This document shows, one piece after another, positions 5,049-25,542 of a stretch of DNA of 64,000 nucleotides (its first letter is position 1; each line of letters starts with the position of its first letter). The translations under genes were made by a program, and so were the position numbers. A model generated the notes under the pieces. It was not told the DNA's origin and did no database searches. It saw only the letters and a program-made list of their open reading frames with translations. The stretch is from Candidatus Nomurabacteria bacterium. Lineage in GTDB: Bacteria; Patescibacteriota; Minisyncoccia; Phycocordibacterales; UBA5272. Location of the stretch: positions 18,830 to 82,829 of the forward strand of contig JAQBRF010000004.1 in assembly GCA_028286645.1 (NCBI GenBank), read 5' to 3'.

Positions 5049-6128
5049 ATGCCTCCACAATCCACAACACCCACTCCAAATACTTCGGCTACTCCGGTAA
5101 TTAACCGCGGGGCTAAGCGAGTAGATATAAATGAGCGCAAAATCATAAACGGCGGAGATGCTGATGTGATTCAGCTTTGGCCTATAAAGCACAAATTCGC
5201 ATGGGATGCGTATAATGTGGGAAATTCCAATCACTGGCTTCCTACAGAAATCAGCATGCAGCTAGACATCGAGCAATGGAAGTCCCAGACTCTTCTTACA
5301 GATGATGAGCGCCATGCTTTGCGAATGGTTTTAGGATTCTTTACTACCGCGGACTCAATAGCTGCGAATAATCTTGTTCTTGCATTCTATAAACACATCA
5401 CTTCTCCGGAAGCGCGCATGTATCTTCTTCGACAAGCTTACGAAGAAGCGATTCATACGCAAGCATATCAATACATCGTAGAATCTCTTGGACTTGATGG
5501 AACAGAAATCTTCAATATGTATCGCGAGGTTGATGCGATTTATAACAAAGAAGAATTTATTCTTTCCTTCAATCAAGGGATATTTAAAGACGACTTTAAA
5601 ACAGGGACATTTGAAAACGATCAGAAGTTCTTAGAAAACATGTGCGTGTTCTCGCTCATTCTTGAAGGCATATTCTTCTATTCATCTTTTGCTGTTATGT
5701 TTGGTTTCCAAAGACAAGGCAAGTTAACGGGTTCAGCTGAACAGATTCAGTACATCATGAGAGATGAAAGCCAGCATATGAACTTCGGAATTGATATGAT
5801 CAACACCATAAAGCAGGAGCAGCCAGAACTCTGGACCCCGCAGTTCGTAGAAAGAATAAAGGCACTAGTACGAAAAGCTGTAGAGCTCGAATACAAATAC
5901 GCCTGGGAAGTTTTCCCTACAGGAATATTTGGATTAAATGCTGAGGGATTCAAACAGTATATTGAATACATTGCTGATAGGCGATTAGGCCGCGTAGGAA
6001 TCGATCCACTATACAATGTATCAAATCCATTCCCATGGATGAGTGAAGCGGTGGATTTGAACAAGGAGAAGAATTTTTTTGAGACGAGGGTTACCGAATA
6101 TAAAACAGGTGGCACCTTGGATTGGTAA
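5049..6128 (+). CDS. nrdB: Ribonucleotide reductase class I small subunit (ferritin-like, di-iron)
   Basis: Motifs EEAIHTQAY, ILEGIFFYSSFA and RDESQHMNFG. Confidence 0.85.
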   Translation: MPPQSTTPTPNTSATPVINRGAKRVDINERKIINGGDADVIQLWPIKHKFAWDAYNVGNSNHWLPTEISMQLDIEQWKSQTLLTDDERHALRMVLGFFTTADSIAANNLVLAFYKHITSPEARMYLLRQAYEEAIHTQAYQYIVESLGLDGTEIFNMYREVDAIYNKEEFILSFNQGIFKDDFKTGTFENDQKFLENMCVFSLILEGIFFYSSFAVMFGFQRQGKLTGSAEQIQYIMRDESQHMNFGIDMINTIKQEQPELWTPQFVERIKALVRKAVELEYKYAWEVFPTGIFGLNAEGFKQYIEYIADRRLGRVGIDPLYNVSNPFPWMSEAVDLNKEKNFFETRVTEYKTGGTLDW

Positions 6129-6260
6129 TCTAATTACAAATATTATGACGCACTACTTTGTCGCCGATAAATTTTCCTCGGTCATCGTATTCCCTATACG
6201 TTTCTCTCGGAAAATTCCTCGTCTTCGCGTATTTCATTCAAAATATTTGAATTAGAAATT

Positions 6261-6941
6261 ATGATTAATTACACTAAAAGCTCTGATATTCATCCCTGCA
6301 TCCTTAATAAGGAAGATTTACAAGATTTAGTTGATTTAGTAATAAAAGATACTCCTAATTATGATAGTAGGGGATTATACATTCGCGGATCTTTTGGAGA
6401 AGTAGATATACATGAAAATAATCTTACGGATTTTTTACAACATAAAAATTTGCCAAAAACTCTAGATAATTTAACCATAAGTTACTCTTCTTATTTAAAG
6501 GACGCTGATCACAGAATAAGAATTGCTTTCTATAAATCATATATCATTCTAGATGTGTCTGGTTCCTCGGAGAGTTTTGTAAAAGGGAAATATAACCAAA
6601 TAAAGGATTTTCTAAAATCGAAAAGACCGTTTTTATGGTTTTTAAAATCGAAAATTGTTTATGGTTTACGAGGTGTACTCTTTGCGGTTGCCGGAACGGT
6701 TTATATGTACCTTATGATTAAATGGGTTAAATATGGCGTGAATCCTAATCTATTTGTTTCTTTAGGTGTAGTCATTTTATTGATAATAGATTATTTTATC
6801 TCGAGAATTGAATTTACTAGAATAAATATAAGCCCTCAAGAAAGTTTCTTAAATAAGCATGAAAGTTTCTTTAAGTATCTTGGGGTGGTAGCTGCTATCT
6901 TTACGATGATTGGTGTAATTTATCAAATTTTTCATTTGTAA
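6261..6941 (+). CDS. Hypothetical membrane protein
   Basis: Hydrophobic C-terminal segments. No known motif. Confidence 0.35.
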   Translation: MINYTKSSDIHPCILNKEDLQDLVDLVIKDTPNYDSRGLYIRGSFGEVDIHENNLTDFLQHKNLPKTLDNLTISYSSYLKDADHRIRIAFYKSYIILDVSGSSESFVKGKYNQIKDFLKSKRPFLWFLKSKIVYGLRGVLFAVAGTVYMYLMIKWVKYGVNPNLFVSLGVVILLIIDYFISRIEFTRINISPQESFLNKHESFFKYLGVVAAIFTMIGVIYQIFHL

Positions 6942-7786
6942 TATTTCTTCCCCACATAAAAATTCTTTTCGAGGAGGGTCGAGAGTTTTTTAGCTTTTGA
7001 TTTGTTTCTATTTATGATAAATCTAATTTTTGATGGAGACGAAACTATGGATTCAAGCTCTTTAATGTTTTCATTTGTAATAACTTTATTTTCTTTATAA
7101 AACTTTTCTATTTTATTAGTTATATCTTTATCATAACGGGCTTCGATAATATAATCACCAATTATATTTAATACAATACCTAAATTATTTGGTCTGTTTT
7201 CAAATAGGGGAGAATCCCTCATATAGTACTGAGACATATTTCCATCAAATTCTTTTGTAATCGCTCTATCAAGCGGAGTTTTATTCCCCGTAGTAAATAA
7301 ATATTTAATTTCTCGAGAATTCATATAGTCGCGTAGCGATAATTCTTCTTTCTTTCTTGCGATCATAAACCAGTTATGGGATGCATACGCATACCACCTA
7401 TCTATATTTGGTAAGGCGTCAAATAATACATAAAGCACATGGTTCCAGAAAGCATCCACCAAAATAGGATTTTTAAATTCATATGTAATCTTATCTCCAT
7501 CTCCCATTTGTAGAAAATGTCCATCCCCGCTTGGTGTTCTATATGCATGCTCAGCAAGGAGGGCAAACTTTTGAATATCTTGTAACCACGATTGATTTAA
7601 CACTGCTTCCTTTTTTGATACCAAAACTATCTGCTGATTTTTTAAAGTGCGAAGGGCTTTATATATTCCTTGGGAGGTTACATTTTTATTATCAAAATAC
7701 TTCAAAATATCCGCCGTCTTCTTTGGCCCGGTCTTTAAAAGTTCTACTATTTTTTCAGCAATTCCTGGGGTAGGAAAATGAGTCAT
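6932..7786 (-). CDS. Hypothetical protein with N-terminal winged-HTH-like region. Its C-terminal 20 aa are encoded by the R1 dispersed repeat
   Basis: ORF is preceded by a perfect TTGACA-18-TATAAT promoter (7818-7847, minus). The C-terminal KSKAKKLSTLLEKNFYV is the repeat translation. Confidence 0.45.
   Translation of the reverse strand: MTHFPTPGIAEKIVELLKTGPKKTADILKYFDNKNVTSQGIYKALRTLKNQQIVLVSKKEAVLNQSWLQDIQKFALLAEHAYRTPSGDGHFLQMGDGDKITYEFKNPILVDAFWNHVLYVLFDALPNIDRWYAYASHNWFMIARKKEELSLRDYMNSREIKYLFTTGNKTPLDRAITKEFDGNMSQYYMRDSPLFENRPNNLGIVLNIIGDYIIEARYDKDITNKIEKFYKENKVITNENIKELESIVSSPSKIRFIINRNKSKAKKLSTLLEKNFYVGKKYYK
6953..7004 (+). repeat. R1 dispersed repeat copy 1 (CACATAAAAAtTCTTTTCGAGGAGGGTcGAGAGtTTTTTAGCTTTtGATTT)
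   Basis: Four copies, 80-90% identical, at 6953, 10026, 10604 and 11517. Confidence 0.6.
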
Positions 7787-7817
7787 AAAACAAACTATTA
7801 GTTTAATTTGTTCTTAT

Positions 7818-7847
7818 ATTATACATAATAATTGCCATGTTTGTCAA
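7818..7847 (-). promoter_or_regulatory. sigma70 promoter TTGACA-N18-TATAAT for the 6932..7786 gene
   Basis: Minus-strand read: TTGACAaacatggcaattattatgTATAAT. Confidence 0.55.
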
Positions 7848-7868
7848 GTCTAATAGAATTGCGGGCAC

Positions 7869-9248
7869 ATGAATGAATTAATAAAACGACCTGTAGATCA
7901 AGGAATCTTGCCTCGCATATTAGGGAGGTTTGACCTAGTTACAATATATTTTACTCTTATATTCGGTTCTTATGGAGCCGCTCAATTAGCGGGAAAAGGG
8001 TGGGCAGGGATTTCCATGCTTTTACTCGCAGTTGTGACATTTCTCATTCCCTGCGCACTAGCTTCATATGAGCTTGGGACATTGTTCCCGGGAGAAGGAG
8101 GGATTTATATGTGGGCAAAAAAAACCCTTGGAATAAAGCACGGATTTATCGCAGGATGGTTATCGTGGGTCCCAGTTTTCTTACTTCTGCCTTTAATTTC
8201 TACGACAATAGTTGCCCATATTCAATTTATCTTTTCTATAAAGTTTCCTCTGTGGTATCAAGTAATACTCCAAGTGGCTGTGATATGGATTATATATTTA
8301 ATCTCAATTAAGAAATTAAAGTTTTCACAGGGATATGTAAGAATTCTCTCAATTGTTGCATTTGCTACTGCAGGGATTGCATATGGTGTAGCTATGATTA
8401 AAGGCCACTCTGTAAATCCTATAAATAGAGAAATATTTTCACTCGATTTAAATAAATATGGGACCCTTTATTCTGCTGCCATTTTATGGCTGCTTGGCGT
8501 AGAAGTTCCATATAACATGGGAGACGAATTCAGTGAACATAAAAAAACTGCAGGATCTATGATTTTGTGGGGGTCACTTGCACTAGTTATTGCATATATA
8601 TTTGGGATTATCGGAGTACTTTATACAACTTCGCTTGATCAGGTAAACCCGACTATTGGTATCGCTCAGGGAGTCGCAAATGTCTATCCAATACTTGGAA
8701 TTGTTGTAGCTTTTTTAATTTGTCTCGCAGTTTCTTCGCAGGGAGTTGCATATATGAATGCTTATTCTCGGCTTTTATTTGTATCAGGCTTAGAAAAATG
8801 TTTACCAGAATCGTATGGGAATATAAGTAAAAATAAAATTCCGACAAAAGCAATGCTTGTACAGGTAATAGGCGCAACTATTGTATTAATTATATTTTCC
8901 ACACAAGCGAACTTAGTGATTGCATTTAATCTTTATCTCGCAGCGCTTGTTGCTGTTTGGTGTGCATCATTATTCTATATTTATATTGGAGTGGTACTTG
9001 CCAGAAGGAACTTAAAGCATGAATATGAAGAAAGGGGAGAAAATATATGGAAGCTTCCATTTGGAAAGATTGGGTTATGGTTTACAGCAATATGGGGATT
9101 TTTCTTTAATATGGTCGCGATTTATTATGTATTTGCAAACCCCTGGGTTGATGGAATAAGTAAAAGTTCGTGGATGTTGTGGCTATCCATCATATCTTTC
9201 GTAGTGGTTGCTTCTGGAACAGTTGTATTTAAATTAAATAGAAAATAA
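7869..9248 (+). CDS. APC-superfamily amino acid permease (12 TM)
   Basis: Hydropathy profile and N-terminal pattern ...GSYGAAQLAGKGWAGISMLLLAVVTFLIPCALASYELGTLFPGEGGIY. Confidence 0.5.
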   Translation: MNELIKRPVDQGILPRILGRFDLVTIYFTLIFGSYGAAQLAGKGWAGISMLLLAVVTFLIPCALASYELGTLFPGEGGIYMWAKKTLGIKHGFIAGWLSWVPVFLLLPLISTTIVAHIQFIFSIKFPLWYQVILQVAVIWIIYLISIKKLKFSQGYVRILSIVAFATAGIAYGVAMIKGHSVNPINREIFSLDLNKYGTLYSAAILWLLGVEVPYNMGDEFSEHKKTAGSMILWGSLALVIAYIFGIIGVLYTTSLDQVNPTIGIAQGVANVYPILGIVVAFLICLAVSSQGVAYMNAYSRLLFVSGLEKCLPESYGNISKNKIPTKAMLVQVIGATIVLIIFSTQANLVIAFNLYLAALVAVWCASLFYIYIGVVLARRNLKHEYEERGENIWKLPFGKIGLWFTAIWGFFFNMVAIYYVFANPWVDGISKSSWMLWLSIISFVVVASGTVVFKLNRK

Positions 9249-9255
9249 AAAAACC

Positions 9256-9285
9256 GGGCAAGATCCGAAGATCTCGCCCGTCCTG
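9256..9285 (-). terminator. Strong intrinsic terminator (CGGGCgAGATC-ttcg-GATCTtGCCCG + T7 on the minus strand). It abuts the stop of the convergent plus-strand permease gene
   Basis: Seen in sequence. Confidence 0.6.
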
Positions 9286-9365
9286 CTTGTTGCTTATTAT
9301 AGCACATTTTCAGGGTTTTGTGCCGTTGCTCGACCGGCTGACAGCCGAAACTCGTCAAGCAATGT
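9256..9365 (-). ncRNA. Candidate small RNA (~110 nt) delimited by a TTGACA-16-TATACT promoter (9372-9399, minus) and the terminator at 9256-9285
   Basis: Promoter and terminator bracket a region with no ORF. Identity unknown. Confidence 0.3.
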
Positions 9366-9424
9366 ATATCCAGTATAGCAAATCCACAGGATTTGTCAAG
9401 TCCTATAAAAAATCTTTATTTTAA

Positions 9425-9439
9425 TGGGTTTGATATACT
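9425..9439 (+). promoter_or_regulatory. Extended -10 promoter (TGaTATACT) for the HAD-like gene, inside a conserved ~80-bp element shared with 11741-11815
   Basis: tttGATATACT lies 26 nt upstream of ATG 9472. Confidence 0.4.
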
Positions 9440-9471
9440 TCCTTTATGAAATATAATCAGTCTTGTTTCTA

Positions 9472-10014
9472 ATGAAAAAAGCGTATAAAAAGATAATATT
9501 TTTTGATGGAGATGGAACGATTTGGTACCCAAAGAAAACAAAGCGCACCGTAGAGCCACACTTAATATATAAAGATGTGTCTATAAGAGATAATAACCAC
9601 CATCTGCACTTAATGCTCACTCCGAAAGTCATAGAAACTCTTCAAGAATTAAAAAGACGCGGAGTTCTGATTGTTTTAGTTTCTACGTATCCACATCAAA
9701 AGAAAGAGGCAGATTTAATTTTAAATAAGAAGGTAAAGCATTTTAACTTAGAGAAAGTTTTCGATGGTATATATACAGCAAGAGACTATCAAGAGGGGAA
9801 GGGTGAAATAATAATGAATGTCTTAAAGAAATATAAACTGCCTAAAGCAAGAGCTGTTATATTAGGAGATAGTTACAGAAGAGACTATTTATCTGCGAAA
9901 CGAATAGGTGTGGACGCTTACTTAATCGAGACTATATATATGAAAGGAAGGCCAAGGGCAAACAATGAAAAATATATTATAAAAGAAGTAGAGGATTTAC
10001 TCAATATAATTTAG
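9472..10014 (+). CDS. HAD-superfamily phosphatase-like protein
   Basis: DxDGT motif (IIFFDGDGTIW) and a later GDS..D motif. Confidence 0.5.
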   Translation: MKKAYKKIIFFDGDGTIWYPKKTKRTVEPHLIYKDVSIRDNNHHLHLMLTPKVIETLQELKRRGVLIVLVSTYPHQKKEADLILNKKVKHFNLEKVFDGIYTARDYQEGKGEIIMNVLKKYKLPKARAVILGDSYRRDYLSAKRIGVDAYLIETIYMKGRPRANNEKYIIKEVEDLLNII

Positions 10015-10025
10015 ACCCACTTCCT

Positions 10026-10070
10026 CACATAAAAATTCTTTCGAGGAGAGAGGAGGTTTTTTAATTTTGG
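10026..10070 (+). repeat. R1 repeat copy 2 (more diverged)
   Basis: Seen in sequence. Confidence 0.5.
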
Positions 10071-10162
10071 AAAATATTATAAAACAATTTTCTTGACTTT
10101 TGTTTTAAATATGGTTGAATTATGGAAAGCTTCACTTGTTCAATCTTTTAGAGAGGTCCTGT

Positions 10163-10543
10163 ATGCTCAGCTTAATCAATACGTTTGTCTGGTACGGGCT
10201 CTGCCTATTTCTGGTGGGACTGATCTCTTACACGATCCTGGGCAGGGAGTGGAAAGAAGGAACTTCCGACTGGTCTACTTACGCCTGCCTCATCCCAAGC
10301 TGTGTGGCGCTGGTTGCGTTTATTGTTACCCCGTTTTTCATAGAGATAGGGGTGACACGCTGGCCGGAGTTTGACACGGCAGATGTTCGTCATTTGGCGC
10401 TGTTCTGGTGCACAAATGAACTACCACCCGAGCAGCTCATCTTCGCGTTGGGTGTCATTGGAATGGCCGTAGCGGTGGGAGTGATCTTTACCGCTACCAT
10501 CGCCCGGATTGGCTCCCTCCGATCGAGAGAATGCGGCGACTAG
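10163..10543 (+). CDS. Hypothetical small membrane protein, high-GC cassette
   Basis: SD AGAGAGG 6 nt before the ATG. 3-4 TM. GC about 55-60%. Terminator at 10572-10608. Confidence 0.45.
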   Translation: MLSLINTFVWYGLCLFLVGLISYTILGREWKEGTSDWSTYACLIPSCVALVAFIVTPFFIEIGVTRWPEFDTADVRHLALFWCTNELPPEQLIFALGVIGMAVAVGVIFTATIARIGSLRSRECGD

Positions 10544-10571
10544 GTCGATCAGTGGGTAAGAAAGATCAGGA

Positions 10572-10608
10572 CAGGGCCTGCGACAGAGATGTCGCGGGCC
10601 TATTTTTT
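10572..10608 (+). terminator. Intrinsic terminator (GGGCCTGCGAC..GTCGCGGGCC + T6)
   Basis: Seen in sequence. Confidence 0.5.
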
Positions 10609-10658
10609 ACATAAAAACTCTTTTCGATGAGAGTGGAGAATTTTTTAGCTTTGGATTT
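10604..10658 (+). repeat. R1 repeat copy 3
   Basis: Seen in sequence. Confidence 0.6.
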
Positions 10659-10662
10659 ATAT

Positions 10663-10880
10663 AAAAAAGAAATAGGGACGCGATCTTCCGATCGCGCCCC
10701 ATGGGGGTTTAGTGGTTCTATGCGATAACCCCCTTTATCGGTCCTCAGACACACGTCTGCATCTGCCGTAATGGTCAGTCTCCGTAGACCGTCCGTTCCT
10801 GTCCTAAATTACGGTTAAGGAATTATAGTGAGAATGAGATTTTCGGCCTATATTGCACCGAGACGGAACTCATCCCCAAA
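10663..10880 (-). ncRNA. Candidate small RNA (~210 nt): promoter TTGACA-17-TAATAT (10887-10915, minus) to terminator hairpin 10675-10700 + T-run
   Basis: Only tiny ORFs inside. Promoter and terminator as stated. Confidence 0.25.
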
Positions 10881-10941
10881 GAACAGCTGCATATTTATAT
10901 TAACTCCGGCGGTGGGATTTGTCAATAGGTGCGTATTTTAG

Positions 10942-10970
10942 TAAAAAAAAGACGGCTCGGGTGAGCCGCC
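10942..10970 (-). terminator. Intrinsic terminator for the 11023..11442 gene (8-bp stem + T8)
   Basis: Minus-strand read: GGCGGCTCacccGAGCCGTCtttttttt. Confidence 0.5.
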
Positions 10971-11022
10971 TGGGAAGGGGGAGAAGGGAGAGGGGATTGG
11001 GGAACTAGGGATGTTGGACGAG

Positions 11023-11442
11023 TTACACCCAGAAGTATTTCATCGCGTTAAGCTCGGCGTGGATTTCGCCAGCGTACTTGCAGGCAAGGTCGATGAAATC
11101 TTCGTCGTTCGGAGCGAGGGCGAGCATCTGAGGAAGACCGCATTGGAAAAATGCGACGAGCGCCTCCAATCGGGATCGACGAGCATTGCGCTCACTCTCT
11201 TTTTCCAGATCTTCATCGACGTCCTTGGTCACCTCATCGATGTATTTCTCGTAGGCACTGGCGGCGACCACGAACTCCAGATTCATCTCTGTGCCGAATT
11301 TCATCGCGATGTAAGCGGCTTCCGCGGGAGCCAGGAAGTTGACGAACTGATTCCCGAATTCTTCTCTGAATGCCCTCGCCATCCTTTTCAGCTCTTCTTC
11401 GTTGCGAGGTGCGCCTTTCTCTTCGTATGCTTGGTTAACCAT
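11023..11442 (-). CDS. Hypothetical acidic protein, high-GC cassette
   Basis: SD AAGGAGA before the ATG, a terminator downstream, and GC-rich sequence. Confidence 0.45.
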   Translation of the reverse strand: MVNQAYEEKGAPRNEEELKRMARAFREEFGNQFVNFLAPAEAAYIAMKFGTEMNLEFVVAASAYEKYIDEVTKDVDEDLEKESERNARRSRLEALVAFFQCGLPQMLALAPNDEDFIDLACKYAGEIHAELNAMKYFWV

Positions 11443-11516
11443 ACTCTTCTCCTTGAGGGTTGTGCAATCATTAAAACACTACAATTCTTTTGTGAAAAAG
11501 TCAATCTTCTAACTTA

Positions 11517-11573
11517 TTCACATAAAAACTCTTTTCGAGGAGGGTGGAGAGCTTTTTAGCTTTGGATTTTGGA
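11517..11573 (+). repeat. R1 repeat copy 4
   Basis: Seen in sequence. Confidence 0.6.
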
Positions 11574-11739
11574 AAATAAAAAGGGCGGGACCACTTGGGA
11601 TCCCGCCCGCTTTGCTACGTTCTCTGCGTGAGGTTCGCAGTCATTCGTAAAATGGGTTTAGTTTCACCTGGGGGCCTCAAGCTTTCCCAGTAGATGGCCT
11701 CAAGAGCGGCGGATGTTTCACCCGTCATTGCCCAGCCAT
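11572..11739 (-). ncRNA. Candidate small RNA (~170 nt): promoter TTGACA-16-TATACT (11746-11773, minus) to terminator GGGCGGGA..TCCCGCCC + T-run (11571-11609)
   Basis: No ORF inside. The promoter spacer carries a CATATGCT/AGCATATG palindrome. Confidence 0.3.
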
Positions 11740-11818
11740 ATGCTCAGTATAGCATATGTAAGGAGTTTGTCAAGTAGTACAAAACCTTTATTTTAAAGGG
11801 TTTTGATATACTGCAAAT

Positions 11819-12076
11819 ATGGGAAACTTATACGAAAATGGGAAGGTAAAAATAAATGCACAATCACTCGTTCTAATCATCCAGGCAGTTGACAGCGAAA
11901 TTCAGAGATTGAAGCGCACGCCGACTGACGAAATGGTGCTCGAGGATTATCAATTTTTAGAAGATTATATTAATGTAGCGGAAGAACTAGAAGAGATCTA
12001 TAAAGAAGCACAAAAGGAAGTAATGAATCTTCCTGTTTACGATAGGCTCGTAGATAAAAAACCAAAGAGTGCATAA
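11819..12076 (+). CDS. Hypothetical small acidic protein. Likely leaderless mRNA, since the extended -10 TGATATACT ends 6 nt before the ATG
   Basis: AT-rich gene with the TGaTATACT element at 11804-11812. Confidence 0.4.
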   Translation: MGNLYENGKVKINAQSLVLIIQAVDSEIQRLKRTPTDEMVLEDYQFLEDYINVAEELEEIYKEAQKEVMNLPVYDRLVDKKPKSA

Positions 12077-12466
12077 ATAGCTTTTCACAATGAAATTGGT
12101 ACTTATACTTAAGATATAATTATAAATATATGGAAAATACACAAAGGGGAAATTTTGGTCCAGGAGGACGAGGTGAAGATAAATATAGATTTCCGCCAGA
12201 AGTAAACGAGGGTGGCTTACAAAAACCAGCCATTGATATAGGCGAGGAATTTAGTCATTTAAACGGCATTGTTCCTTAAGGGTTTACGGGAAATAATACG
12301 GAAACAGAGGAAGATCCAGTATCTTCTGATGTGGCATATATTGAAGGACCAGACGAATATAGGAAGAGAGGATCAATGTAATTGACTTCACCCGTTTAAA
12401 CTGGCAGAGTGAAGTGGAATAACCAGAAATAAATATCTGGTTCAATAACATTGCGAGGATAAAGAC

Positions 12467-12874
12467 ATGGAAGCGGGAATTTTTGCAATTATTTCGTTGT
12501 TTACGCTCTTCCGTTTCGGAAGGACGTTAGGGCGAATATATGTCGGGGCGGAGGATTGGCTGGGTGTTCTCACGTGGATTTTCGGAACAGCCTCCTTCGT
12601 GCTTTCAACTCAAAGTCTGATAGTTGTGATATGGGAGCTCCTAGGCAGCTTTTCACCTTTCTACATCGGTGATAAAGGCCTGTTGTACTGCCTTTCTTGG
12701 GGATGGATGGCTCCGTGGAAAGGGCTGGACATTTTCGTGGCCCAGAGTATTATCCTGGGTGCATTAACTATCTCTTGCACGATGCTTTTGGGGGCTATCT
12801 CGTATTACGCTGTACGGGGACTGCCAGTGCGTGAGCCTTTTGTTTCCAAAGATTCCAATTTCGTTGTACGTTGA
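12467..12874 (+). CDS. Hypothetical membrane protein, high-GC cassette
   Basis: SD GAGGA before the ATG. About 4 TM. Confidence 0.4.
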   Translation: MEAGIFAIISLFTLFRFGRTLGRIYVGAEDWLGVLTWIFGTASFVLSTQSLIVVIWELLGSFSPFYIGDKGLLYCLSWGWMAPWKGLDIFVAQSIILGALTISCTMLLGAISYYAVRGLPVREPFVSKDSNFVVR

Positions 12875-13000
12875 TCCGCGGCGCGCAAGCGTTGCGGTTT
12901 TATTATTGATTTGACTTAATTAGATATAGCTGGCAGAGTATGATTGAGCCACTGGCTTTGATTAGCCGGTATTTATGAATCACTTACAGGAGGAAGTTTC

Positions 13001-13396
13001 ATGGATGAGTATGGATGGTTGTGGGGTCTTTCGTTTATGGGCAATTTCTTCATCCTTATCGTGGTTGCGAGAGCGGTATGGGTGAAATCGCAGAAAAGGA
13101 TTGATGTTGGCATAGCCTTTGCCATCGCATCAATTATCGCTTTTGCGGGGATTACGTACTGCGCGGCCTACGTGCTTTTCTGGGCCGGCTACGCACTTAT
13201 GCCGCACGACATCACCAAGGAGATGCTCGAGGCGGTGGCAAATTTCCAGTTCTCGCATCTGACTGGTCGTGACCTTACGATATCGATCGCGCTCGGATTG
13301 ATCGCCCTAGGGATCAGCTTGGCGATCGTGATCTCGGTCATAAGGGGGGCCATAAAACAGCCGTCGAGAATCGGCAAACCAATCAGGGTCACATAG
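13001..13396 (+). CDS. Hypothetical membrane protein, high-GC cassette
   Basis: SD AGGAGGA before the ATG. About 4 TM. Terminator CCGCGGCGAACAAGCCGCGG + T at 13405-13440. Confidence 0.45.
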   Translation: MDEYGWLWGLSFMGNFFILIVVARAVWVKSQKRIDVGIAFAIASIIAFAGITYCAAYVLFWAGYALMPHDITKEMLEAVANFQFSHLTGRDLTISIALGLIALGISLAIVISVIRGAIKQPSRIGKPIRVT

Positions 13397-13623
13397 GTGT
13401 GACGAGGGCCGCGGCGAACAAGCCGCGGATTTTTTATATAAAACAAGCACCGCCCACAATAGACGGCACTTTCGGTTCTTTCATAATTAGTTTACCATTA
13501 ACTTCTTCTTTAATTTGATCGTGTGGATAGATTTTCCCTTATCCTTTGACTCGAAAAATCAGGAGGAGTACGCTTATAAATGAGCAGCACAAACATGTTC
13601 TAGCACTCGGAGGAGTGAGCAAT

Positions 13624-13923
13624 ATGGGAAAGTCGGATAAAACGGCCCTGGCAACAGGTTTGCAGTTTCTCAGCAATGTGAGGGTCATCAACAGGAACTT
13701 CGTAGGTGATCCGCCAAGCCTTCAGCCTGGGAAACCTGGGATTGAATTTTTCCTTGAATTTCTCGCAGCGCGGAAGGTCACCTTCGAAATGTGCGAGATC
13801 ATCCCGGGGAACGGAGGCAGAGAAATCACCATCCGCGCTACGGGCTGCCCGGAGGCGCTCGAGCTCCTGGGTGAAAGCGGCGAAGGACGCCGTCATGATT
13901 GGGCTTTTCGAGTCACGCATTGA
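13624..13923 (+). CDS. Hypothetical protein, high-GC cassette (start moved to the internal Met that carries a GGAGGAG SD)
   Basis: GGAGGAGtgagcaatATG. A strong bidirectional terminator lies at 14003-14047. The overlapping minus-strand ORF 13600..13998 is the alternative. Confidence 0.3.
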   Translation: MGKSDKTALATGLQFLSNVRVINRNFVGDPPSLQPGKPGIEFFLEFLAARKVTFEMCEIIPGNGGREITIRATGCPEALELLGESGEGRRHDWAFRVTH

Positions 13924-14070
13924 GTTCGAAAGCCCGGACAGAAGCTGATATGGCCAGGTCTCTGCAAGCGAAAGCTGCAGAGACCTTTTATTTGACATAA
14001 GAAAAACAAGAGCGTAAATTAAAATAGTACGCTCTTGTTTTTCCTAGAGCCCTAACTCAAGGAGGATATT

Positions 14071-14319
14071 TTGCCTGAAAGCACCTTACCGAAAGTTCCG
14101 AGAAGTGCGCCTGAACATCCCGATGACGTCGAGGTCTCACACGAAGGGGAGTGGATCGCCCTGTTATTTCATCCGAAAATGATTCTTGAGCCGACAAGCT
14201 ACACATTCGAGGTGGACTCATCCTCTAAGCTGCAAGTTTTCGTCGGCGGATGGCTGGTCGTTGAGTTCGAAAGCCGGGAATGGGTAGTATTTCGTACGTC
14301 CAAGCAGGCTGCCGCGTAA
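14071..14319 (+). CDS. Hypothetical protein, high-GC cassette (TTG start after AAGGAGG)
   Basis: SD and spacing. Terminator at 14337-14367. Confidence 0.35.
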   Translation: MPESTLPKVPRSAPEHPDDVEVSHEGEWIALLFHPKMILEPTSYTFEVDSSSKLQVFVGGWLVVEFESREWVVFRTSKQAAA

Positions 14320-14435
14320 TAAGCGGAACTTGTACTCCGTGGCTCCGCAAGGAGCCACGGTTTTTCTTTGACCTAGAAGTTGCTTTGTAGTACAGTTATA
14401 AAGATTTATTGTTCAACTAACCAGAGGAAACTCAA

Positions 14436-14747
14436 GTGGACGACGACATGATGGACCGTTTCGGAATTGTGGACAAGGGAGGTTGGTCAGATGGAGAGGG
14501 GTGCCTGTCAAACCGGGATCCTGAGGCTCATCAATTGATCGAAGTCGGTCAGTGCAGGTTTGAAAAACTGGTCGATAACGTTCCTAAAGAGGAGTGGATA
14601 GCCCTCGATGCTTTCATCCACGAGTGCGGATTCCCGCTTGCGTCGACCAAGGTTCTGATAACCCCTGCTGACCTGAAGGGGCGACTCTATATACGATGCG
14701 GAGAGAAACAGATTTGTCTCATAACAGGCAAATGGCGGTATGCGTAA
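14436..14747 (+). CDS. Hypothetical protein, high-GC cassette
   Basis: Terminator CTGGGAGC..GCTCCCAG + T8 at 14756-14790. Confidence 0.35.
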   Translation: MDDDMMDRFGIVDKGGWSDGEGCLSNRDPEAHQLIEVGQCRFEKLVDNVPKEEWIALDAFIHECGFPLASTKVLITPADLKGRLYIRCGEKQICLITGKWRYA

Positions 14748-14865
14748 TACCACACTGGGAGCAAGGAAAGCTCCCAGGTTTTTTATTTTTATATTGACTG
14801 GACATATTTAAGGCGCTAAAGTTATAAAGATTGGTCTTTTTGCAATGAACCTTTGTGGAGGATTT

Positions 14866-15420
14866 ATGACGAAACCAATTCTTACGATTGTCCCGCAGCT
14901 CGAAGTAAGAAGGGGTGGAGGAGAACCTCCTCCGCTCCTTGATAAACAGCTTCGGGTGGATGAGACTCCGCCAGCGGCGGCTGATCAAGCCGAGGCAGAG
15001 CCTGATTTCCAAGGAAAGGCAACATCAAGCCCTGACGACGTCCAATCCTTGGGCGATGTTTCAGAGGCCAGTGATGCAGAATCGGCTCAGGTTTCTCCCG
15101 GCGAATTGTGGCGAAAAGATCGCGAGGAAGCATGGAGACTTTACCAGGAAAGTAAAGCGCGCATCAGCCTATCGGATCCGATAAAGTCAGGGATTCCAGC
15201 GGAGTCGGTGATCATTTATTGGACTGACTCGGAGCCGCGGACAAAAATGACCGGCGAAGATGTGATCAATGAAAGTCTCGAGCGCGTAGAAGGAGATCGG
15301 TTCGTAGAGATCAGCACTACAGGAGAATCGAAAAAAGGTGTATGCTTCATTTTCACCTATTCTCACCGGTTCCCGTTTTTCAGGTTTTTCGCACCTGAGG
15401 TCTGCGAAATAAAAAAATAA
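14866..15420 (+). CDS. Hypothetical acidic low-complexity protein, high-GC cassette
   Basis: GGAGGAtttATG. Terminator CCGCGGCTGGAGGGCCGCGG + T-run at 15431-15462. Confidence 0.4.
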   Translation: MTKPILTIVPQLEVRRGGGEPPPLLDKQLRVDETPPAAADQAEAEPDFQGKATSSPDDVQSLGDVSEASDAESAQVSPGELWRKDREEAWRLYQESKARISLSDPIKSGIPAESVIIYWTDSEPRTKMTGEDVINESLERVEGDRFVEISTTGESKKGVCFIFTYSHRFPFFRFFAPEVCEIKK

Positions 15421-15554
15421 GACAGAAATTCCGCGGCTGGAGGGCCGCGGTTTTATTTTTTCACATATCCTTTTTTGAATGTTGATGGTTATAGTATATT
15501 AATTAAGTACTGTTCTGTTTTTTCTTAACCGTTTCATTTTTAATAGAAGAGAAA

Positions 15555-15740
15555 ATGTCGGCAATAAAGAGACCTAAGTCCCCAGTTTTTCCTGAGGGAG
15601 ACGTGCTTCATATCGACGGACGGCTCCTCCAAACGCATAATGGACACAAAGCTACGCCTCCCCCAAAAGGAGGGGATGATTTTCCTGCTGTGCGAGTTTC
15701 TCCAAGCGGTCAAAGTGTCTACCGTTTCCGCCCGAAATGA
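15555..15740 (+). CDS. Hypothetical small protein, high-GC cassette
   Basis: Followed by the terminator GTGCGCAGCGCC-tac-GGCGCTGCGCAC + T7 at 15751-15786. Confidence 0.3.
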   Translation: MSAIKRPKSPVFPEGDVLHIDGRLLQTHNGHKATPPPKGGDDFPAVRVSPSGQSVYRFRPK

Positions 15741-15822
15741 AAGAGGCCAAGTGCGCAGCGCCTACGGCGCTGCGCACTTTTTTTAACTCGCCCTTAAATA
15801 CTCATTTGATATACTAACAACT

Positions 15823-16767
15823 ATGATTCATGTCTCAAATAGTCTTCCAGATATTGCGGTTCTTCGCGGAGGCAATGTTAATTTTAAGAAATCATTAGCA
15901 GAAGGGGGAGAAGTTCTACAATCGCTTATAAAAATCGGATATAACCCAATTGATGTATTAATTGATGAAGAAGGAAACTGGACAGCAAGCGGGATGCCAA
16001 CAGATGCTCACACAATTTTTACTCGTTCTCATACAGTAGTAGACACGACTAGAATGAAAAAAGAAAAGTATCAAGAACTTGCTAAAAATATGGGCATATC
16101 GCTTATATTCTCTCATGATGACGATATGACTATTGATAGAGAGGGGATGTATAGGATCTTAAGGCAGAAAGGATTTAAAGTTCCAGAAACAATTGTGGTG
16201 CGCTCATCTTTTCCGATAAAGCCGGAAATATTTCGGAAGATCTGGTCGACTTATCATACTCCTTTAATGGTGCGTCCTTTAGAATCGCATACTGGAGAAC
16301 CATCCAAGATCGTAAAACTATTTCAAGACTTAGAAAAGACAGTGAGAGATTATCATGAAAAGGGAATTGATGTACACGTGCTCACATACAAGAAGTCTCC
16401 CACTACTTCCATCGCCCTTATTCCAAACTTTCGGGGAGAAAAGATTTACACGCCTGTATGGGTGGAAACATTTGGAAGCTATGATGCTCCGCCAAATGAA
16501 AATTCTCCAATGCGCGCTCATATGCAAGCACCAGACTTTAGAAAGAAACAGGTGTGGGATTTTGCCACAAATGTTTATCAAGAACTTGGACTTAATGTTC
16601 CTGTTTGTATTGATATGGTGCCATATAAGGAAGGATATATAGTGGTAAATATAGACACTCATCCATCGCTACGTAACAATGGCAGATTTATGCAATCTCT
16701 TTTAACTACAGGAGTAGATGCTGGTCAATATATTCATTCGAGAGTGAAAGAGGAGTATGGGATATGA
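15823..16767 (+). CDS. D-alanine--D-alanine ligase-like ATP-grasp protein
   Basis: N-terminal IAVLRGG...SL.SG..V..SL...GY..IDVLIDEEGNW resembles Ddl. Length 314 aa. Terminator at 16810-16855. Confidence 0.4.
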   Translation: MIHVSNSLPDIAVLRGGNVNFKKSLAEGGEVLQSLIKIGYNPIDVLIDEEGNWTASGMPTDAHTIFTRSHTVVDTTRMKKEKYQELAKNMGISLIFSHDDDMTIDREGMYRILRQKGFKVPETIVVRSSFPIKPEIFRKIWSTYHTPLMVRPLESHTGEPSKIVKLFQDLEKTVRDYHEKGIDVHVLTYKKSPTTSIALIPNFRGEKIYTPVWVETFGSYDAPPNENSPMRAHMQAPDFRKKQVWDFATNVYQELGLNVPVCIDMVPYKEGYIVVNIDTHPSLRNNGRFMQSLLTTGVDAGQYIHSRVKEEYGI

Positions 16768-17130
16768 TAGATAAAAAGTAAGCTATTTTATTTGTGAGGA
16801 AAAAGAAAAGAACGCCCCTCTGGTAAGTATGGCGTTCTTCTCTTTTTGTTTCCCCTCCGCATTTCTGCTTCAGGAAGACGTCTTTGTTTGATGCGTTGGC
16901 GGTTGCTTCTTTACAGCTTCCGTTTTTGTTAGCATTACATATTGCTATGCATTGCTTCCAGTTGTTTTGAAGCCGCATCATGCTTTTTTATCGGCATTAT
17001 ACACTTCAAGAATTATCTTAAATTCTATCTATGAGTACTAAAAGCTGATAATTGAAACAACTGTCTGAGAAGTAGTGTAGCAATACTGCGTGATATACTC
17101 AAGTATATAAAAGAAAGTTATTCACACATT

Positions 17131-17526
17131 ATGTCATTCATCGGAAATATTCAAACATTGGTATACAGAAATGATAACTTCAGAGAAGTGGTTTTTACAG
17201 GTGAGAAATCTCAGCTTGTGGTTATGTCTATTCCACCGGGAACGGAGGTGGGGGAAGAAGTCCACGAACATGTGGAACAGACTCTTTATATTATAAGCGG
17301 ATTATGCCAGGCAGTTTTGGATGACAGAGTAACCGAAGTTAGCGGAGGAGATGTAATTGTGGTAACTCCCGGGACTAAACATAATTTTATAAATAACGGA
17401 ACAGAGACAGTTAAAATAATCAGCACCTACGCACCGCCGAATCACATAGACCATCGAGTGCATGTAACAATAGATGATGCAAAAGCTGATATTGAGGACG
17501 AAGACTTTGGAGACAGAGTGCAATAG
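17131..17526 (+). CDS. Cupin-domain protein
   Basis: Cupin-2 type motifs (G.E..EH.HV.EQTLYIISG and VVTPGTKHNFIN). Confidence 0.5.
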   Translation: MSFIGNIQTLVYRNDNFREVVFTGEKSQLVVMSIPPGTEVGEEVHEHVEQTLYIISGLCQAVLDDRVTEVSGGDVIVVTPGTKHNFINNGTETVKIISTYAPPNHIDHRVHVTIDDAKADIEDEDFGDRVQ

Positions 17527-17547
17527 TATCTGTCTAATATATTGTTA

Positions 17548-18246
17548 TTAATTTTTATCTTCAATTCCTAACTCAAGCAAAAGAGAGGAGATTTGTTTTG
17601 GAGATAAATAATGTATCGCCCCCGCTTTTAATCCATGACTTACAAATGATAGAATCCGAGTTCGCTTAAGAGATAGAATAGTAAGATTAAGCGCATTTAG
17701 CATTCGTCTGATTTCGTGCTTCTTACCTTCTGTTAACACAATTCGTAAAGATCTATTTTCACCGTACATTGTAACTGATTTAACTGGAGCATACGTTGCT
17801 TCACGGGTCCTGATGCCTTTCTTTAAAAGAGTGATTACTCGTGGCGTCATTTTTTCCCTCACTACCACCTCGTATTCTTTTTCTCTCCCATGCTTTGGAT
17901 TAAGTAGCGCATCCACGACTCTAAAATCATTTGTATATAATAAAAGGCCTTCGCTTTCCTTGTCTAATCGTCCGATGGGTTCGCATCCGGAAAGTTCATT
18001 TAGCCTGCCAGTTACTTCTCCTCGCTTCTTATAATAAAGCGCATAAATCAAATCTTTAGATGGATTGTCTATTTTTATAATATCTCCTGTTGCCACTTTG
18101 CTTCCCAGAGTTGCTGCCTTTCCATGGATAGTAATAAATTTATTTTTTATATATTCGTCAATTTCTCGTCGTGAGCCCACTCCTTGATCGCGGAGGTAGA
18201 TATTTATCCTTATAGGCGTTTTAGCATTAACCGTGATGATTTTCAT
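17548..18246 (-). CDS. rRNA pseudouridine synthase, RsuA/RluB family with an S4 domain
   Basis: GRLDKESEGLLLYTNDF catalytic motif and an N-terminal S4-like region. Confidence 0.7.
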   Translation of the reverse strand: MKIITVNAKTPIRINIYLRDQGVGSRREIDEYIKNKFITIHGKAATLGSKVATGDIIKIDNPSKDLIYALYYKKRGEVTGRLNELSGCEPIGRLDKESEGLLLYTNDFRVVDALLNPKHGREKEYEVVVREKMTPRVITLLKKGIRTREATYAPVKSVTMYGENRSLRIVLTEGKKHEIRRMLNALNLTILSLKRTRILSFVSHGLKAGAIHYLSPKQISSLLLELGIEDKN

Positions 18247-18351
18247 TGTTTTATGATTGTAGCATATTTGCTCATTCAGTTGTCATATCTGTGTCATATC
18301 TGGCTTATGACCATTTATATGCATAAAGTGAATGCAGTTAAGTGAAGGAGC

Positions 18352-19521
18352 TTATCTCGTATCTTTAATCGGAAGTACATAGGAAATCCCCCACAAGATG
18401 ACTCCTCCTAATACCAGGAACATCAATTGAGGTCTATCTATTAAAAATGGAGAAATTAAAATTCCAACGGCACCTATAAATATAGTCGCAAATATTCCGG
18501 CATTATTAAATAAGGCATTAAGAGAAGAATCAGTGGACTTTATCTTTTTAAAAAAATATGTGTAAGCCATAGTCTCTACTAAGGCTGCTCCTATTCTTGA
18601 AACTACTAGTATTCCGATCCACACCCTTGGATCATTGCTGGTTATTATTACACACATAAATGCGGTTATAGCCAAGATACAAAGCCCAGTAATCATTATT
18701 TCTTTTTCGCCATATTTAGTATCAGCCAGAACTCCCACTTCATACGGAAGGAGAACAAGCGGGACGAGAGCTAAAGGCAAGATGAAACTAAGGTATGTAG
18801 TAAGCGGAATTCCTAAAGTAACCAAATAAATAGGGGAGTAAATAATCATTACCGCATAAAAAGACTGTACGATAAACATCGCAATTAAGGCGCCTTTTAG
18901 ATTAGTGTTTCTGGAGACTTGCCTAATAGCCCAAAATAAATCAACTGAATGATAAGCGGGCTCTTTAATGTGGCTTAGGTATTTATGTAGGAAATATAAA
19001 AATGGAATTAATGTAAGACTTGTTACGATATACAGAATTTCAAATGATCCTATTTTAAGAAGTGCTCCTCCGATAACGGGTGAAACCAATATCCCCATAT
19101 TTAATATAACTAAAAATAGTCCGCGAATGCTGCCGGTTTCCGCGTGGTGGCTAAAGCTTTCAACAAAAATATTCAAACATACATAAAGAAGAGATTGAAG
19201 TAGAAAATGCACAACAAAGAAAATGCCGATGAAGATGGCGCTGTTAGTCGTGGCCATGGCCAACATCGCAAGCATCTCTAAGATAACTAGTCCGAAAGTA
19301 AATGTGTATGTATGGAAGCGCTTAATATATTTAGAAAAGTAGATCGCCGCTATTAAAGCGACAATGCTTGCCAGCATGTATAACCCATTTACCCATGAAG
19401 AAGCAAAAAACTGATGAAGATATGTTGAAGTGGCATAAAGCGGAATTCCATAATGAAGCGCATAAAGAATCGTCAGCATGTAAGTGACGATAAGGAGTTT
19501 ATTGCGAACTATTGCGTGCAT
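18352..19521 (-). CDS. MFS-type transporter (about 12 TM)
   Basis: Hydropathy only. Confidence 0.45.
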   Translation of the reverse strand: MHAIVRNKLLIVTYMLTILYALHYGIPLYATSTYLHQFFASSWVNGLYMLASIVALIAAIYFSKYIKRFHTYTFTFGLVILEMLAMLAMATTNSAIFIGIFFVVHFLLQSLLYVCLNIFVESFSHHAETGSIRGLFLVILNMGILVSPVIGGALLKIGSFEILYIVTSLTLIPFLYFLHKYLSHIKEPAYHSVDLFWAIRQVSRNTNLKGALIAMFIVQSFYAVMIIYSPIYLVTLGIPLTTYLSFILPLALVPLVLLPYEVGVLADTKYGEKEIMITGLCILAITAFMCVIITSNDPRVWIGILVVSRIGAALVETMAYTYFFKKIKSTDSSLNALFNNAGIFATIFIGAVGILISPFLIDRPQLMFLVLGGVILWGISYVLPIKDTR

Positions 19522-19615
19522 AGGAACAGTTTACAGTTTCCAGTGATCAGTTTCCAGGGAAAAAGAAAACCCGCCTCACGACGAGTAATCTTTTATTACT
19601 CGCCGCCGGGCGGGG

Positions 19616-19888
19616 CTATCTGCAGGAAGGGGCATCTTGTTCCTGGAGGTAGTATTTGTACAGAGGGGATCGCCGATCGCCGACGTAATACTCTTGCACT
19701 TGATATGTTTCTGCAGCTTCACCTTTTCGCATGGGGCGGGTCACCGCCGTCAGCCCGTTGTTGCCCCTCAGCGATGCGGATACCACCTTCTGGCATGCCT
19801 CGATCTTGTACGGTTCGGGTCGCGGTTGTGCGGAAACGTCCGCGCCAAAACCCAAGGAAAGAAGCAATGCCACCGTATAGACTTTCAT
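19616..19888 (-). CDS. Small secreted protein (signal peptide), high-GC
   Basis: SD AAGGAGG before the ATG. Signal peptide MKVYTVALLLSLGFGADVSA. Driven by the palindromic consensus promoter at 19945-19980. Confidence 0.5.
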   Translation of the reverse strand: MKVYTVALLLSLGFGADVSAQPRPEPYKIEACQKVVSASLRGNNGLTAVTRPMRKGEAAETYQVQEYYVGDRRSPLYKYYLQEQDAPSCR

Positions 19889-19944
19889 AGGACCTCCTTA
19901 AAATTGTGCGGTTGTCTCCTCCTCAAATAAGGAGAAGAAATACA

Positions 19945-19980
19945 AATGCCAGTATATCATATATACCAGCATTTGTCAAT
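19945..19980 (-). promoter_or_regulatory. sigma70 consensus promoter TTGACA-17-TATACT with an inverted-repeat spacer (copy a of the promoter cassette)
   Basis: Minus-strand read: TTGACAaatgctggtatatatgaTATACT. Confidence 0.55.
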
Positions 19981-20106
19981 AAGGCCGATTCAAAAAAGCT
20001 TACTTAGATAAGTTTTTTTGTTTTACAATCTTTTACACGCCACACGCCACACGCCACATCTACACACTAATAATTACTGATCTCTTCGCGGTGATTATGG
20101 GTAAGA

Positions 20107-20904: not shown

Positions 20905-20907
20905 ATT

Positions 20908-22800: not shown

Positions 22801-22831
22801 AATTTTTTAATTAATTTTTAATATTGAAATT

Positions 22832-24550: not shown

Positions 24551-24573
24551 ACTATAGGACTACCTATCGGTGT

Positions 24574-24798: not shown

Positions 24799-24880
24799 GG
24801 GTATATAGTATCAAAAAGGGGTTAAAAAGTAAATATGAGAGGAAATGTACGTCCAAGATTTACTTAGAGTCCTTACAGGA

Positions 24881-25508: not shown

Positions 25509-25542
25509 AATATGTAAAGTATACCAAGTTTTAATTTATTCC

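Follow-up and report, generated by a model that had tools for sequence, protein, structure and literature searches.

How does a run of small GC-rich genes, each apparently furnished with its own promoter and terminator, come to lie among the AT-rich housekeeping genes of a Candidatus Nomurabacteria chromosome? The question is raised by an island of about 5.7 kb (positions ~10100–15790) in a 64,000-nucleotide stretch of contig JAQBRF010000004.1 (assembly GCA_028286645.1), which we analysed as a whole and call the window. A preliminary description, made from the sequence before any database search, had counted about nine small open reading frames (ORFs) of 60–190 amino acids (aa) in it, and we indeed found nine GC-rich ORFs of 61–191 aa (P1, P2 and P5–P11) together with two low-GC ORFs (P3 and P4). 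The main new point is that two styles of expression appear to coexist in one genome: the predicted signals of the GC-rich genes are Shine-Dalgarno (SD) sites and terminators at the gene's end, and those of the native genes point to leaderless, SD-less messages. We consider it probable, at roughly 0.6, that the island is a set of accessory cassettes resembling the morons of phages, imported from GC-richer, SD-using sources and evolving fast.

The composition of the island sets it apart from its surroundings. Its mean GC is 0.472 versus 0.389 in the remainder of the window, and a scan in 200-nt windows confirmed the two steps near 10100 and 15800 that had been described, from 0.325 to 0.45–0.53 within 10100–10300 and from 0.535 to 0.37 within 15700–15900. 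The described rise from ~33% to ~55–60% overstated the level reached: the nine GC-rich ORFs have a GC of 0.48–0.56 versus 0.32–0.39 in the flanking genes, and 0.55–0.585 is attained solely by the highest 200-nt windows of the island. GC at third codon positions (GC3) is 0.40–0.67 (0.47–0.67 in eight of the nine ORFs, 0.40 in P11), compared with 0.28–0.41 in host and flanking genes. The relative synonymous codon usage (RSCU) of the island correlates with that of the host at r=−0.12 versus 0.92 between two halves of the host genes; island codon usage is almost flat, and Trp (2.4%) and Cys (1.9%) are frequent compared with host genes (0.9% and 0.7%). A low-GC interruption, ascribed at first to one gene at 11819–12076, extends from ~11700 to ~12450 and holds both P3 and P4.

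Is this patchwork an artefact of assembly? The window is bacterial chromosome, encoding UvrC, NrdA and NrdB, an amino-acid permease, a HAD hydrolase, a ddl-like ATP-grasp protein, a cupin, a pseudouridine synthase (rluA-like), an MFS transporter, RNase J, DnaE, RNase HII and a NusB-NUDIX fusion, and the island is flanked by nrdAB and the permease, HAD, ddl-like, cupin and pseudouridine synthase genes. NCBI annotates P2 and P10 as hypothetical proteins (MDB5260176.1, JWN37_407, and MDB5260183.1, JWN37_414) on a 514,133-bp contig of a Candidatus Nomurabacteria metagenome-assembled genome (MAG). Logan contigs of SRR13312974 are identical to the window over 6080–14062 and 14274–26625. Both GC boundaries are thus internal to separately assembled exact contigs, which refutes the chimeric assembly that had been entertained, and a contig from a different metagenome (L003, below) repeats the linkage of such genes to the ddl-like gene. 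The 211-nt gap between the two Logan contigs (14063–14273) falls within P8 and could reflect strain variation or low coverage.

How would the genes of the island be expressed? SD cores of at least 5 nt at normal spacing precede the first start codon of six of the nine ORFs, P2, P5, P6, P8 and P9 among them, and a nearby in-frame ATG of P7 and P10, on a background of 4.7% of 17-nt island windows (enrichment P ~4e-5). The description had given nearly every gene a strong SD; in P1, an alternative ATG is preceded by GAGG. A GC-rich hairpin of 20–31 nt followed by a T-run lies 3′ of all nine GC-rich ORFs, as had been described for nearly every gene. Between 9 and 17 kb we counted 22 terminator-like sites versus 7.4 expected; elsewhere the counts are 17 versus 14 and 11 versus 7 expected, and neither of the stretches 1–9 kb and 37–56 kb departs much from chance. 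The layout of one gene and one terminator is unusual for this genome, as had been proposed, with terminators enriched only in the island among the stretches scanned. TTGAC occurs 62–91 nt upstream of 12 of 16 GC-rich ORFs in the window and of eight of the nine in the island (P11 excepted), a distance that would leave a leader of roughly 25–55 nt.

The low-GC genes carry a different set of signals. No first start among the 40 low-GC ORFs of the window is preceded by an SD core of 5 nt or longer, and in 21 of these ORFs a −10-like hexamer ends 4–11 nt before the start (background 7.8% of ATG triplets, P=2e-13). By eye, this native −10 box mostly reads TGnTAtAcT, an extended −10, and ends 5–9 nt before the ATG in the window and in the related contigs L003, L005, L007 and L008. 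Native genes rarely have strong terminators. Together, these signals suggest that native low-GC genes largely give rise to leaderless, SD-less mRNAs. Conversely, the leaderless signature is found in none of 15 GC-rich ORFs of the window; an SD precedes the first start of 6 of them and a plausible start of 9.

The same two styles can be traced in related DNA. In L003, L007 and L008 the ddl gene is of the leaderless type; among the island ORFs of L003, several have an SD (two clearly) and a strong terminator closes most. The SD-bearing ORFs of L005 are the GC-rich ones (GC up to 0.59, GC3 up to 0.77), with an rve-family transposase gene lying between two of them. The association of GC-rich composition with SD sites is also seen in L003, L005 and L010, all metagenomic or MAG contigs. 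A literature search found, in the library covered, no relevant paper on the run SRR13312974, on Nomurabacteria islands or on leaderless translation in bacteria of the candidate phyla radiation (CPR).

Are the GC-rich ORFs coding? All nine are longer than when their own unit is shuffled with dinucleotides preserved (P from <0.0005 for P10 to 0.08 for P7; 0.06 for P11), and in all nine GC is higher at first than at second codon positions (GC1 > GC2), with P7 read in frame from 13624. The ratio of nonsynonymous to synonymous differences (pN/pS) is 0.45 in P2, 0.59 in P6 and 0.42 in o212, a GC-rich ORF elsewhere in the window; the nonsynonymous divergence (dN) of P2 and P6 is 0.44–0.82 versus 0.24 for ddl. 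Since pN is below pS in P2 and P6, these are evidently real proteins that evolve fast, and the substitution pattern shows them to be under purifying selection. One could still suppose that the ORFs are no genes, the region consisting of non-coding RNAs or spurious ORFs in stop-poor GC-rich DNA, or that it is an assembly chimera. Long antisense ORFs do overlap P2 and P7, eight ORFs lack a homologue, the ORF lengths of P7 and P11 are marginal and the AlphaFold2 models are of low confidence. This supposition, which we find hardly credible, is countered by correctly spaced SD sites at least 10-fold above background, by ORFs that span promoter to terminator, exceed the shuffles and combine GC1 > GC2 with high GC3, by conservation of P2, P6 and o212 as proteins, and, for the chimera, by the linkage confirmed in exact independent contigs and in a second metagenome. 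The AlphaFold2 models of P2 (all-helical, pLDDT 50, 2-sequence alignment) and P10 (pLDDT 40, single sequence) were set aside as evidence of fold, the pLDDT values being too low.

Where does the island sit in relatives? We retrieved relatives, all Paceibacterota MAGs, through an alignment-based GTDB scan with the ddl-like gene. The gap between nrdB and ddl is 9.7 kb in the window versus 1.6–2.6 kb in four of them (L006–L009; ddl 56–67% identical, NrdB ~85%), and the genes in their gaps, which we take to resemble FKBP, GNAT and NYN-like proteins, among others, are unrelated to the island. Since these four relatives have the flanks but lack the island genes, the slot is a variable one. In all relatives nrdAB forms its conserved left anchor; NrdA itself (1943–4939) has two N-terminal ATP-cone matches.

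L003, a JGI metagenome contig identical to L004 (a Logan contig of another run), has a layout like that of the island: a minus-strand homologue of P2, then P3 and small plus-strand genes up to ddl (67.5% identity). Its clear homologues are those of P2 (42% identity), P3 (70%) and P6 (29% over 113 aa, E 2.5e-11 in a small search), with weak positional matches to P8/P9 and P11; the C-terminus of P11 is weakly similar to a 75-aa L003 gene that likewise lies directly upstream of ddl (E 0.012). In the P2 homologue P0010 (42% identity by HMMER, 45% in a MAFFT alignment) the C-terminus and stop are conserved. Because L003 carries homologues of P2, P3 and P6 beside ddl, a sample with no connection to this one ties island genes to a core gene of CPR bacteria. 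Judging from this shared content, part of the island is older than the divergence of the L003 lineage.

Units like those of the island recur in the window at 19453–19890, at ~44.46–44.63 kb and in a minus-strand cluster at 57.5–61.3 kb. At 19453–20904, o145 (GC 0.516) and o265 stand between the MFS gene and the RNase J gene. The spacing of mfs and rnj is only ~130–150 nt in L007 and L008, where the unit at 19.4 kb is missing, which makes 19453–20904 another lineage-specific insertion. A single small plus-strand unit at ~44390–44680 has the SD GGAGGAGG and a terminator at 44659–44677. The minus-strand cluster (57468–61254) is a second group of GC-rich orphans, comprising o87, o114, o212, o147 and the weakly SnoaL-like o131, with TTGACA-17-TATACT promoters. 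The sole homologue of o212 (60% identity) lies on a 2.9-kb contig of 53% GC that has four such units in a row.

Do the island proteins belong to known families, or to phages? In a HMMER pass of the concatenated island proteins against 1.84 billion cluster representatives, P1, P5, P6, P7, P9, P10 and P11 matched only themselves and P8 matched nothing; P2 had one homologue and P3 about 25. The GC-rich ORFs gave no significant match in Pfam, PHROGs (best E=0.019), PADLOC, NCBIfam or PDB sequences. The suggested look for the same cassettes in phage and plasmid databases was carried out and returned no match by phage tblastn (50,697 phage records) or plasmid blastn, and no relatives of P2 or o212 in IMG/VR. 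The island region contains no tRNA, its surroundings (6.2–17.5 kb) encode no integrase or transposase domain, and the island as a whole has no flanking repeats. These results bear on whether the island is what remains of a prophage or another mobile element, only the accessory genes, the morons, having survived. A promoter–gene–terminator layout with deviant GC is the textbook layout of a moron, and that layout is seen in the island. The PHROG, phage-record and IMG/VR searches speak against such a remnant, as does the lack of structural, replication or integrase genes nearby, and we judge it very improbable.

Could the GC-rich genes instead be native? They might form a vertically inherited, lineage-specific class of leadered, SD-dependent genes, some perhaps de novo, with GC raised by, for example, GC-biased gene conversion at a recombination hotspot. 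The partial synteny with L003 would be accounted for, as would the absence of a donor among 15 billion proteins, the flat codon usage with high Trp and Cys, and window copies that are GC-richer than those of L003. Local duplication would fit as well: P8, P9 and a 156-aa L003 protein have a common WIAL...SGEW-type motif (E 0.008, small search), by which P8 and P9 are probable tandem paralogues, and a block upstream of P5 (12382–12410) is common to P6 (repeat family D9). A native class is harder to reconcile with the absence of the genes from four relatives that have these flanking genes too, with an entire signal set, beyond the coding part, unlike that of native genes, with GC-rich SD-led ORFs adjoining transposase genes in L005 and with an o212 homologue whose contig has 53% GC along its whole length. 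We regard it as unlikely.

Since the island signals differ from those of the AT-rich, SD-less native genes, import as self-contained units is the most likely origin. Horizontal acquisition, as first proposed, gains indirect support from the codon-usage correlation, the foreign signals, the absence in four relatives and the GC-rich context of the o212 homologue; we infer it, as we do transcription, translation and any role of the island genes. The notion of a single recent block from one donor had to be abandoned: part of the island predates the L003 split, three more sites exist in the window, and no donor, phage or plasmid match emerged. In the model that we favour, the island is an accessory cluster in a variable slot of the chromosome between nrdB and the ddl-like gene. 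It consists of nine autonomous cassettes, in each of which a TTGAC-type −35/−10 promoter and a putative SD leader of ~25–55 nt precede a small GC-rich ORF that is followed by a strong intrinsic terminator. Three of the ORFs encode small multi-pass membrane proteins and six encode small soluble ones; between the cassettes lie P3 and P4, which are low in GC and lack an SD, and two small RNA units bounded by terminators. The cassettes would have been brought in as complete expression units, lodged in variable slots, kept, duplicated (P8/P9) and quickly diverged, some of them having been in place before the L003 lineage split off. As for their role, the small membrane proteins and several acidic ones hint at the envelope or at interactions, and our guess is small proteins of the envelope, of cell–cell interaction or of an immunity type.

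Several points weigh against import. (i) Genes that are young or arose de novo might well show the same flat codon usage and frequent Trp and Cys. (ii) GC3 of P2 and P6 is 0.64–0.67 in the window versus ~0.51 in L003, though the window genome is the more AT-rich; GC-richer window copies are thus not predicted by simple import followed by amelioration. (iii) The searches found no donor, no phage, plasmid or viral homologue and no mobility gene at the island. (iv) P4, P7 and P11 are weakly supported as genes, and leaderless and leadered transcription are read from sequence alone.

What do the two low-GC ORFs add? P3 has the native style, with TATACT ending 6 nt before its ATG. A profile of its family (24 homologues) matches the chains 4c18, 5ako, 3rq9 and 3stq of Tsi2, an immunity protein, over profile positions 1–72 of 74 (E 9e-14 to 3e-13); PF21643 is matched by 20 of the 24 family members, P3 alone scoring 21.3 bits, below the cut-off of 27. 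By these profile matches P3 is a member of the Tsi2 family, and the statement that no homology to known families exists holds for the GC-rich ORFs but not for P3. No Tse2-type toxin gene adjoins P3, the neighbours P2 and P4 having no toxin-family match. Tsi2-like homologues elsewhere are solitary among housekeeping genes, and P3 by itself therefore says little about the island. P4 has no family match and its coding status is uncertain.

P3 nevertheless invites the idea that the island is an orphan immunity or defence array of the AID type, made of constitutive single-gene units in which membrane proteins act against pore-forming toxins and soluble ones neutralise toxins. Besides the Tsi2 membership of P3, such an array would fit the variable slot and the fast evolution. 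Some features recall rAID-1 (bioRxiv 10.1101/471110): eight of the nine GC-rich genes share one orientation, their GC is skewed and an intergenic element is repeated. The idea suffers from the fact that immunity-like ORFs number one in eleven, and that one is low-GC and native in style; from the solitary occurrence of its homologues elsewhere; from the lack of any PADLOC match, XerD-like recombinase or toxin gene; and from a GC skew that is upwards here, rAID-1 being defined by low GC. We hold an array of this kind to be distinctly unlikely and return to imported cassettes, whose components are collected in Table 1.

Table 1. Coordinates of the predicted genes and other elements of the island and its surroundings (positions in the window; GC as a fraction).
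Feature	Position	Strand	Description
Module copy	6944–7010	+	Outside island
sRNA-like unit (putative)	9250–9372	−	Outside island; promoter TTGACA-16-TATACT with TG 9399–9372; terminator 9280–9255; fold z −4.89
Module copy A	10019–10090	+	Directly after HAD stop codon; repeat families D2, D3
P1	10115–10543	+	142 aa; three hydrophobic segments; GC 0.517, GC3 0.63; alternative ATG 10163 preceded by GAGG
P1 terminator	10574–10601		12-bp stem
Module copy B	10601–10671	+	Direct-repeat and alignment evidence
sRNA-like unit (putative)	10668–10892	−	~225 nt; promoter TTGACA-17-TAATAT 10925–10897; terminator 10700–10675; fold z −3.05
P2	11023–11442	−	139 aa; acidic; AAGGAG SD; GC 0.526; terminator 10971–10950
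Module copy C	11512–11582	+	Direct-repeat and alignment evidence
sRNA-like unit (putative)	11576–11746	−	~165 nt; promoter TTGACA-16-TATACT with TG 11773–11746; terminator 11608–11583; fold z −2.34
Divergent promoter block	11745–11821		Duplicate of 9371–9448; 71–75% identity (repeat families D4, D5)
P3	11819–12076	+	85 aa; GC 0.372; native leaderless style; Tsi2 immunity-protein family
P4	12130–12279	+	49 aa; low GC; without SD; called as gene in Logan contig
P5	12467–12874	+	135 aa; hydrophobic membrane protein, at least 2 hydrophobic segments; GAGGA SD; terminator 12876–12897
P6	13001–13396	+	131 aa; three hydrophobic segments; AGGAGG SD; terminator 13409–13428
P7	13624–13923	+	99 aa; GGAGGAG SD; terminator 13957–13985; antisense ORF 13600–13998 present
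P8	14071–14319	+	82 aa; TTG start; AAGGAGGA SD; acidic; terminator 14337–14360
P9	14436–14747	+	99–103 aa; acidic; GAGGA SD; terminator 14755–14777
P10	14845–15420	+	184–191 aa; acidic, N-terminal half low-complexity; GGAGGA SD before ATG 14866; terminator 15431–15450
P11	15555–15740	+	61 aa; basic, pI 10.3; terminator 15749–15779, 14-bp stem

The products of the GC-rich ORFs largely fall into the two groups that had been described. The three proteins said to have 3–4 transmembrane segments are P1, P5 and P6: three hydrophobic segments are seen in P1 and P6, and P5 has at least two; paralogy among these proteins was not significant by BLAST. The remaining ones, said to be acidic or low-complexity, include P2, P8, P9 and P10, with isoelectric points (pI) of 4.6–4.9; P11 is basic. 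Upstream of the alternative start of P1, TTGAC lies at 70 nt from the ATG. P7, called on the plus strand in the Logan contig, is the least certain of the larger ORFs, and P8 has no record as a called gene.

Besides the ORFs, the island contains promoter-to-terminator units that resemble genes of small RNAs (sRNAs) and are without a credible ORF. Three of these had been placed within it; two lie inside and the third (9250–9372) outside. Rfam, at gathering thresholds and at E<=1, yielded no match for these units or for the repeated module described below. At the position matching 11576–11746, L003 has a promoter-to-terminator unit of different sequence. The predicted divergent promoter block between this unit and P3 would drive the sRNA-like unit leftwards and the leaderless P3 rightwards, and it is also kept upstream of the P3 homologue in L003. 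Its duplicate at 9371–9448 is predicted to serve an unrelated sRNA-like unit leftwards and a leaderless HAD gene rightwards. From these signals, the sRNA-like units are presumably expressed.

A second repeated element is an AT-rich intergenic module of 60–70 nt with the consensus TTCCTCACATAAAAATTCTTTTCGAGGAGGGnGGAGAnTTTTTTAGnTTTTGATTTTGGAAAATAAAAA, of which the window has four same-strand copies. L003 has three copies in matching places (reverse strand, ~472–545, 1072–1145 and 2187–2262); in both lineages the module is confined to this variable region, and it is better conserved than the adjoining coding sequence. Several copies lie directly downstream of a minus-strand terminator. The AT-rich modules had been read as promoters, a reading that fails in the absence of any match to a promoter consensus; what we find is a conserved element, one copy of which lies beyond the island at 6944. 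An RNA structure was rejected (single-fold z near 0; six weak RNAalifold pairs and no compensatory change), and so was a coding remnant, the reverse-strand peptide motif SKAKKLSTLLEK not being conserved in the L003 copies. The module pattern has no match in IMG/VR.

Two further loci of the window stand apart from the island. On the minus strand at 62480–62825, a tRNA gene is apparently split by a group I intron (Rfam, 62521–62804), with the acceptor halves TCCGTGG and CCACGGA and the T-arm GTAGGTTCGATCCCTAC; ARAGORN reported no tRNA across the window. The plus-strand ORF beside the intron (62895–63239) has a Cys/His pattern that by eye resembles an HNH endonuclease. At 29640–41894, a 4084-aa ORF has Peptidase_S74 (endosialidase chaperone), near its C-terminus, as its sole Pfam match and probably encodes a giant surface protein.

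What would follow from the imported-cassette origin? Small orphan genes without explanation abound in CPR bacteria, and the immediate value of the island is descriptive. Composition combined with expression signals offers a criterion, applicable from sequence, for sorting accessory from native genes in CPR genomes. The island points to an episymbiont lineage that receives genes from sources using SD sites, and the question is raised whether two modes of initiation allow separate regulation of the accessory set. Going further, Paceibacteria might carry a circulating pool of self-contained, SD-led small-protein cassettes that gather at fixed hotspots without a recognisable recombinase, with the 60–70-nt module as an insertion or regulatory site. 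We offer this as speculation and think it improbable; if true, it would describe a cassette-capture system without a known integrase and two separately controllable modes of translation initiation.

How does the island compare with known systems? We saw no signature of a phage, plasmid, integron or defence system in it. Type I toxin-antitoxin modules, in which a hydrophobic toxin of less than ~60 aa is paired with an overlapping or antisense sRNA, were considered and rejected: the island membrane proteins have 131–142 aa and its sRNA-like units are non-overlapping. With an integron cassette array the island shares small, mostly orphan, co-oriented ORFs in a variable array. It differs in having no IntI or other recombinase domain in neighbouring ORFs and no attC; its units have their own promoters, their 3′ ends are short GC hairpins with T-runs, and the repeated module is without a supported fold. 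The rAID-1 arrays of Bacteroidales have a XerD-like recombinase at the 5′ end, at least two small co-oriented downstream genes and a GC of at most 41%, and their genes are homologous to toxin-immunity genes and separated by repeated intergenic sequence (bioRxiv 10.1101/471110). Small co-oriented genes (eight of nine), skewed GC, repeated intergenic sequence and the membership of P3 in an immunity family of type VI secretion systems are points of likeness to them; no XerD-like recombinase was found, the GC skew is upwards, ten of the eleven ORFs lack similarity to immunity proteins, and each gene has a terminator. Membership of either the integrons or rAID-1 thus fails on the recombinase and on attC or an equivalent.

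The island is like a classical genomic island in its deviant GC and codon usage, in its varying presence at a fixed slot and in its fast-evolving orphans, and unlike one in that no integrase, transposase, tRNA target or flanking repeat was found here. As a rule, orphan genes exceed their host in AT content. Here the GC of the island is above that of the host, and the signals of translation initiation are of a different kind from the host's.

Phage morons, as reportedly defined by Hendrix and colleagues, are autonomous promoter–gene–terminator units of deviant composition, inserted between conserved genes. The island departs from them in its setting, beside housekeeping genes (nrdAB, ddl-like, rluA-like, RNase J) of a cellular chromosome, in the absence of detectable phage genes or homologues and in its number of units, nine in a row with further ones elsewhere in the window. 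It agrees with them in the design of its units: the genes have a predicted sigma-70-type promoter of their own (TTGAC for eight of nine, P11 again excepted) and an intrinsic terminator (nine of nine), their composition is unlike that of their neighbours, their products are small, and they stand between genes that are adjacent in relatives.

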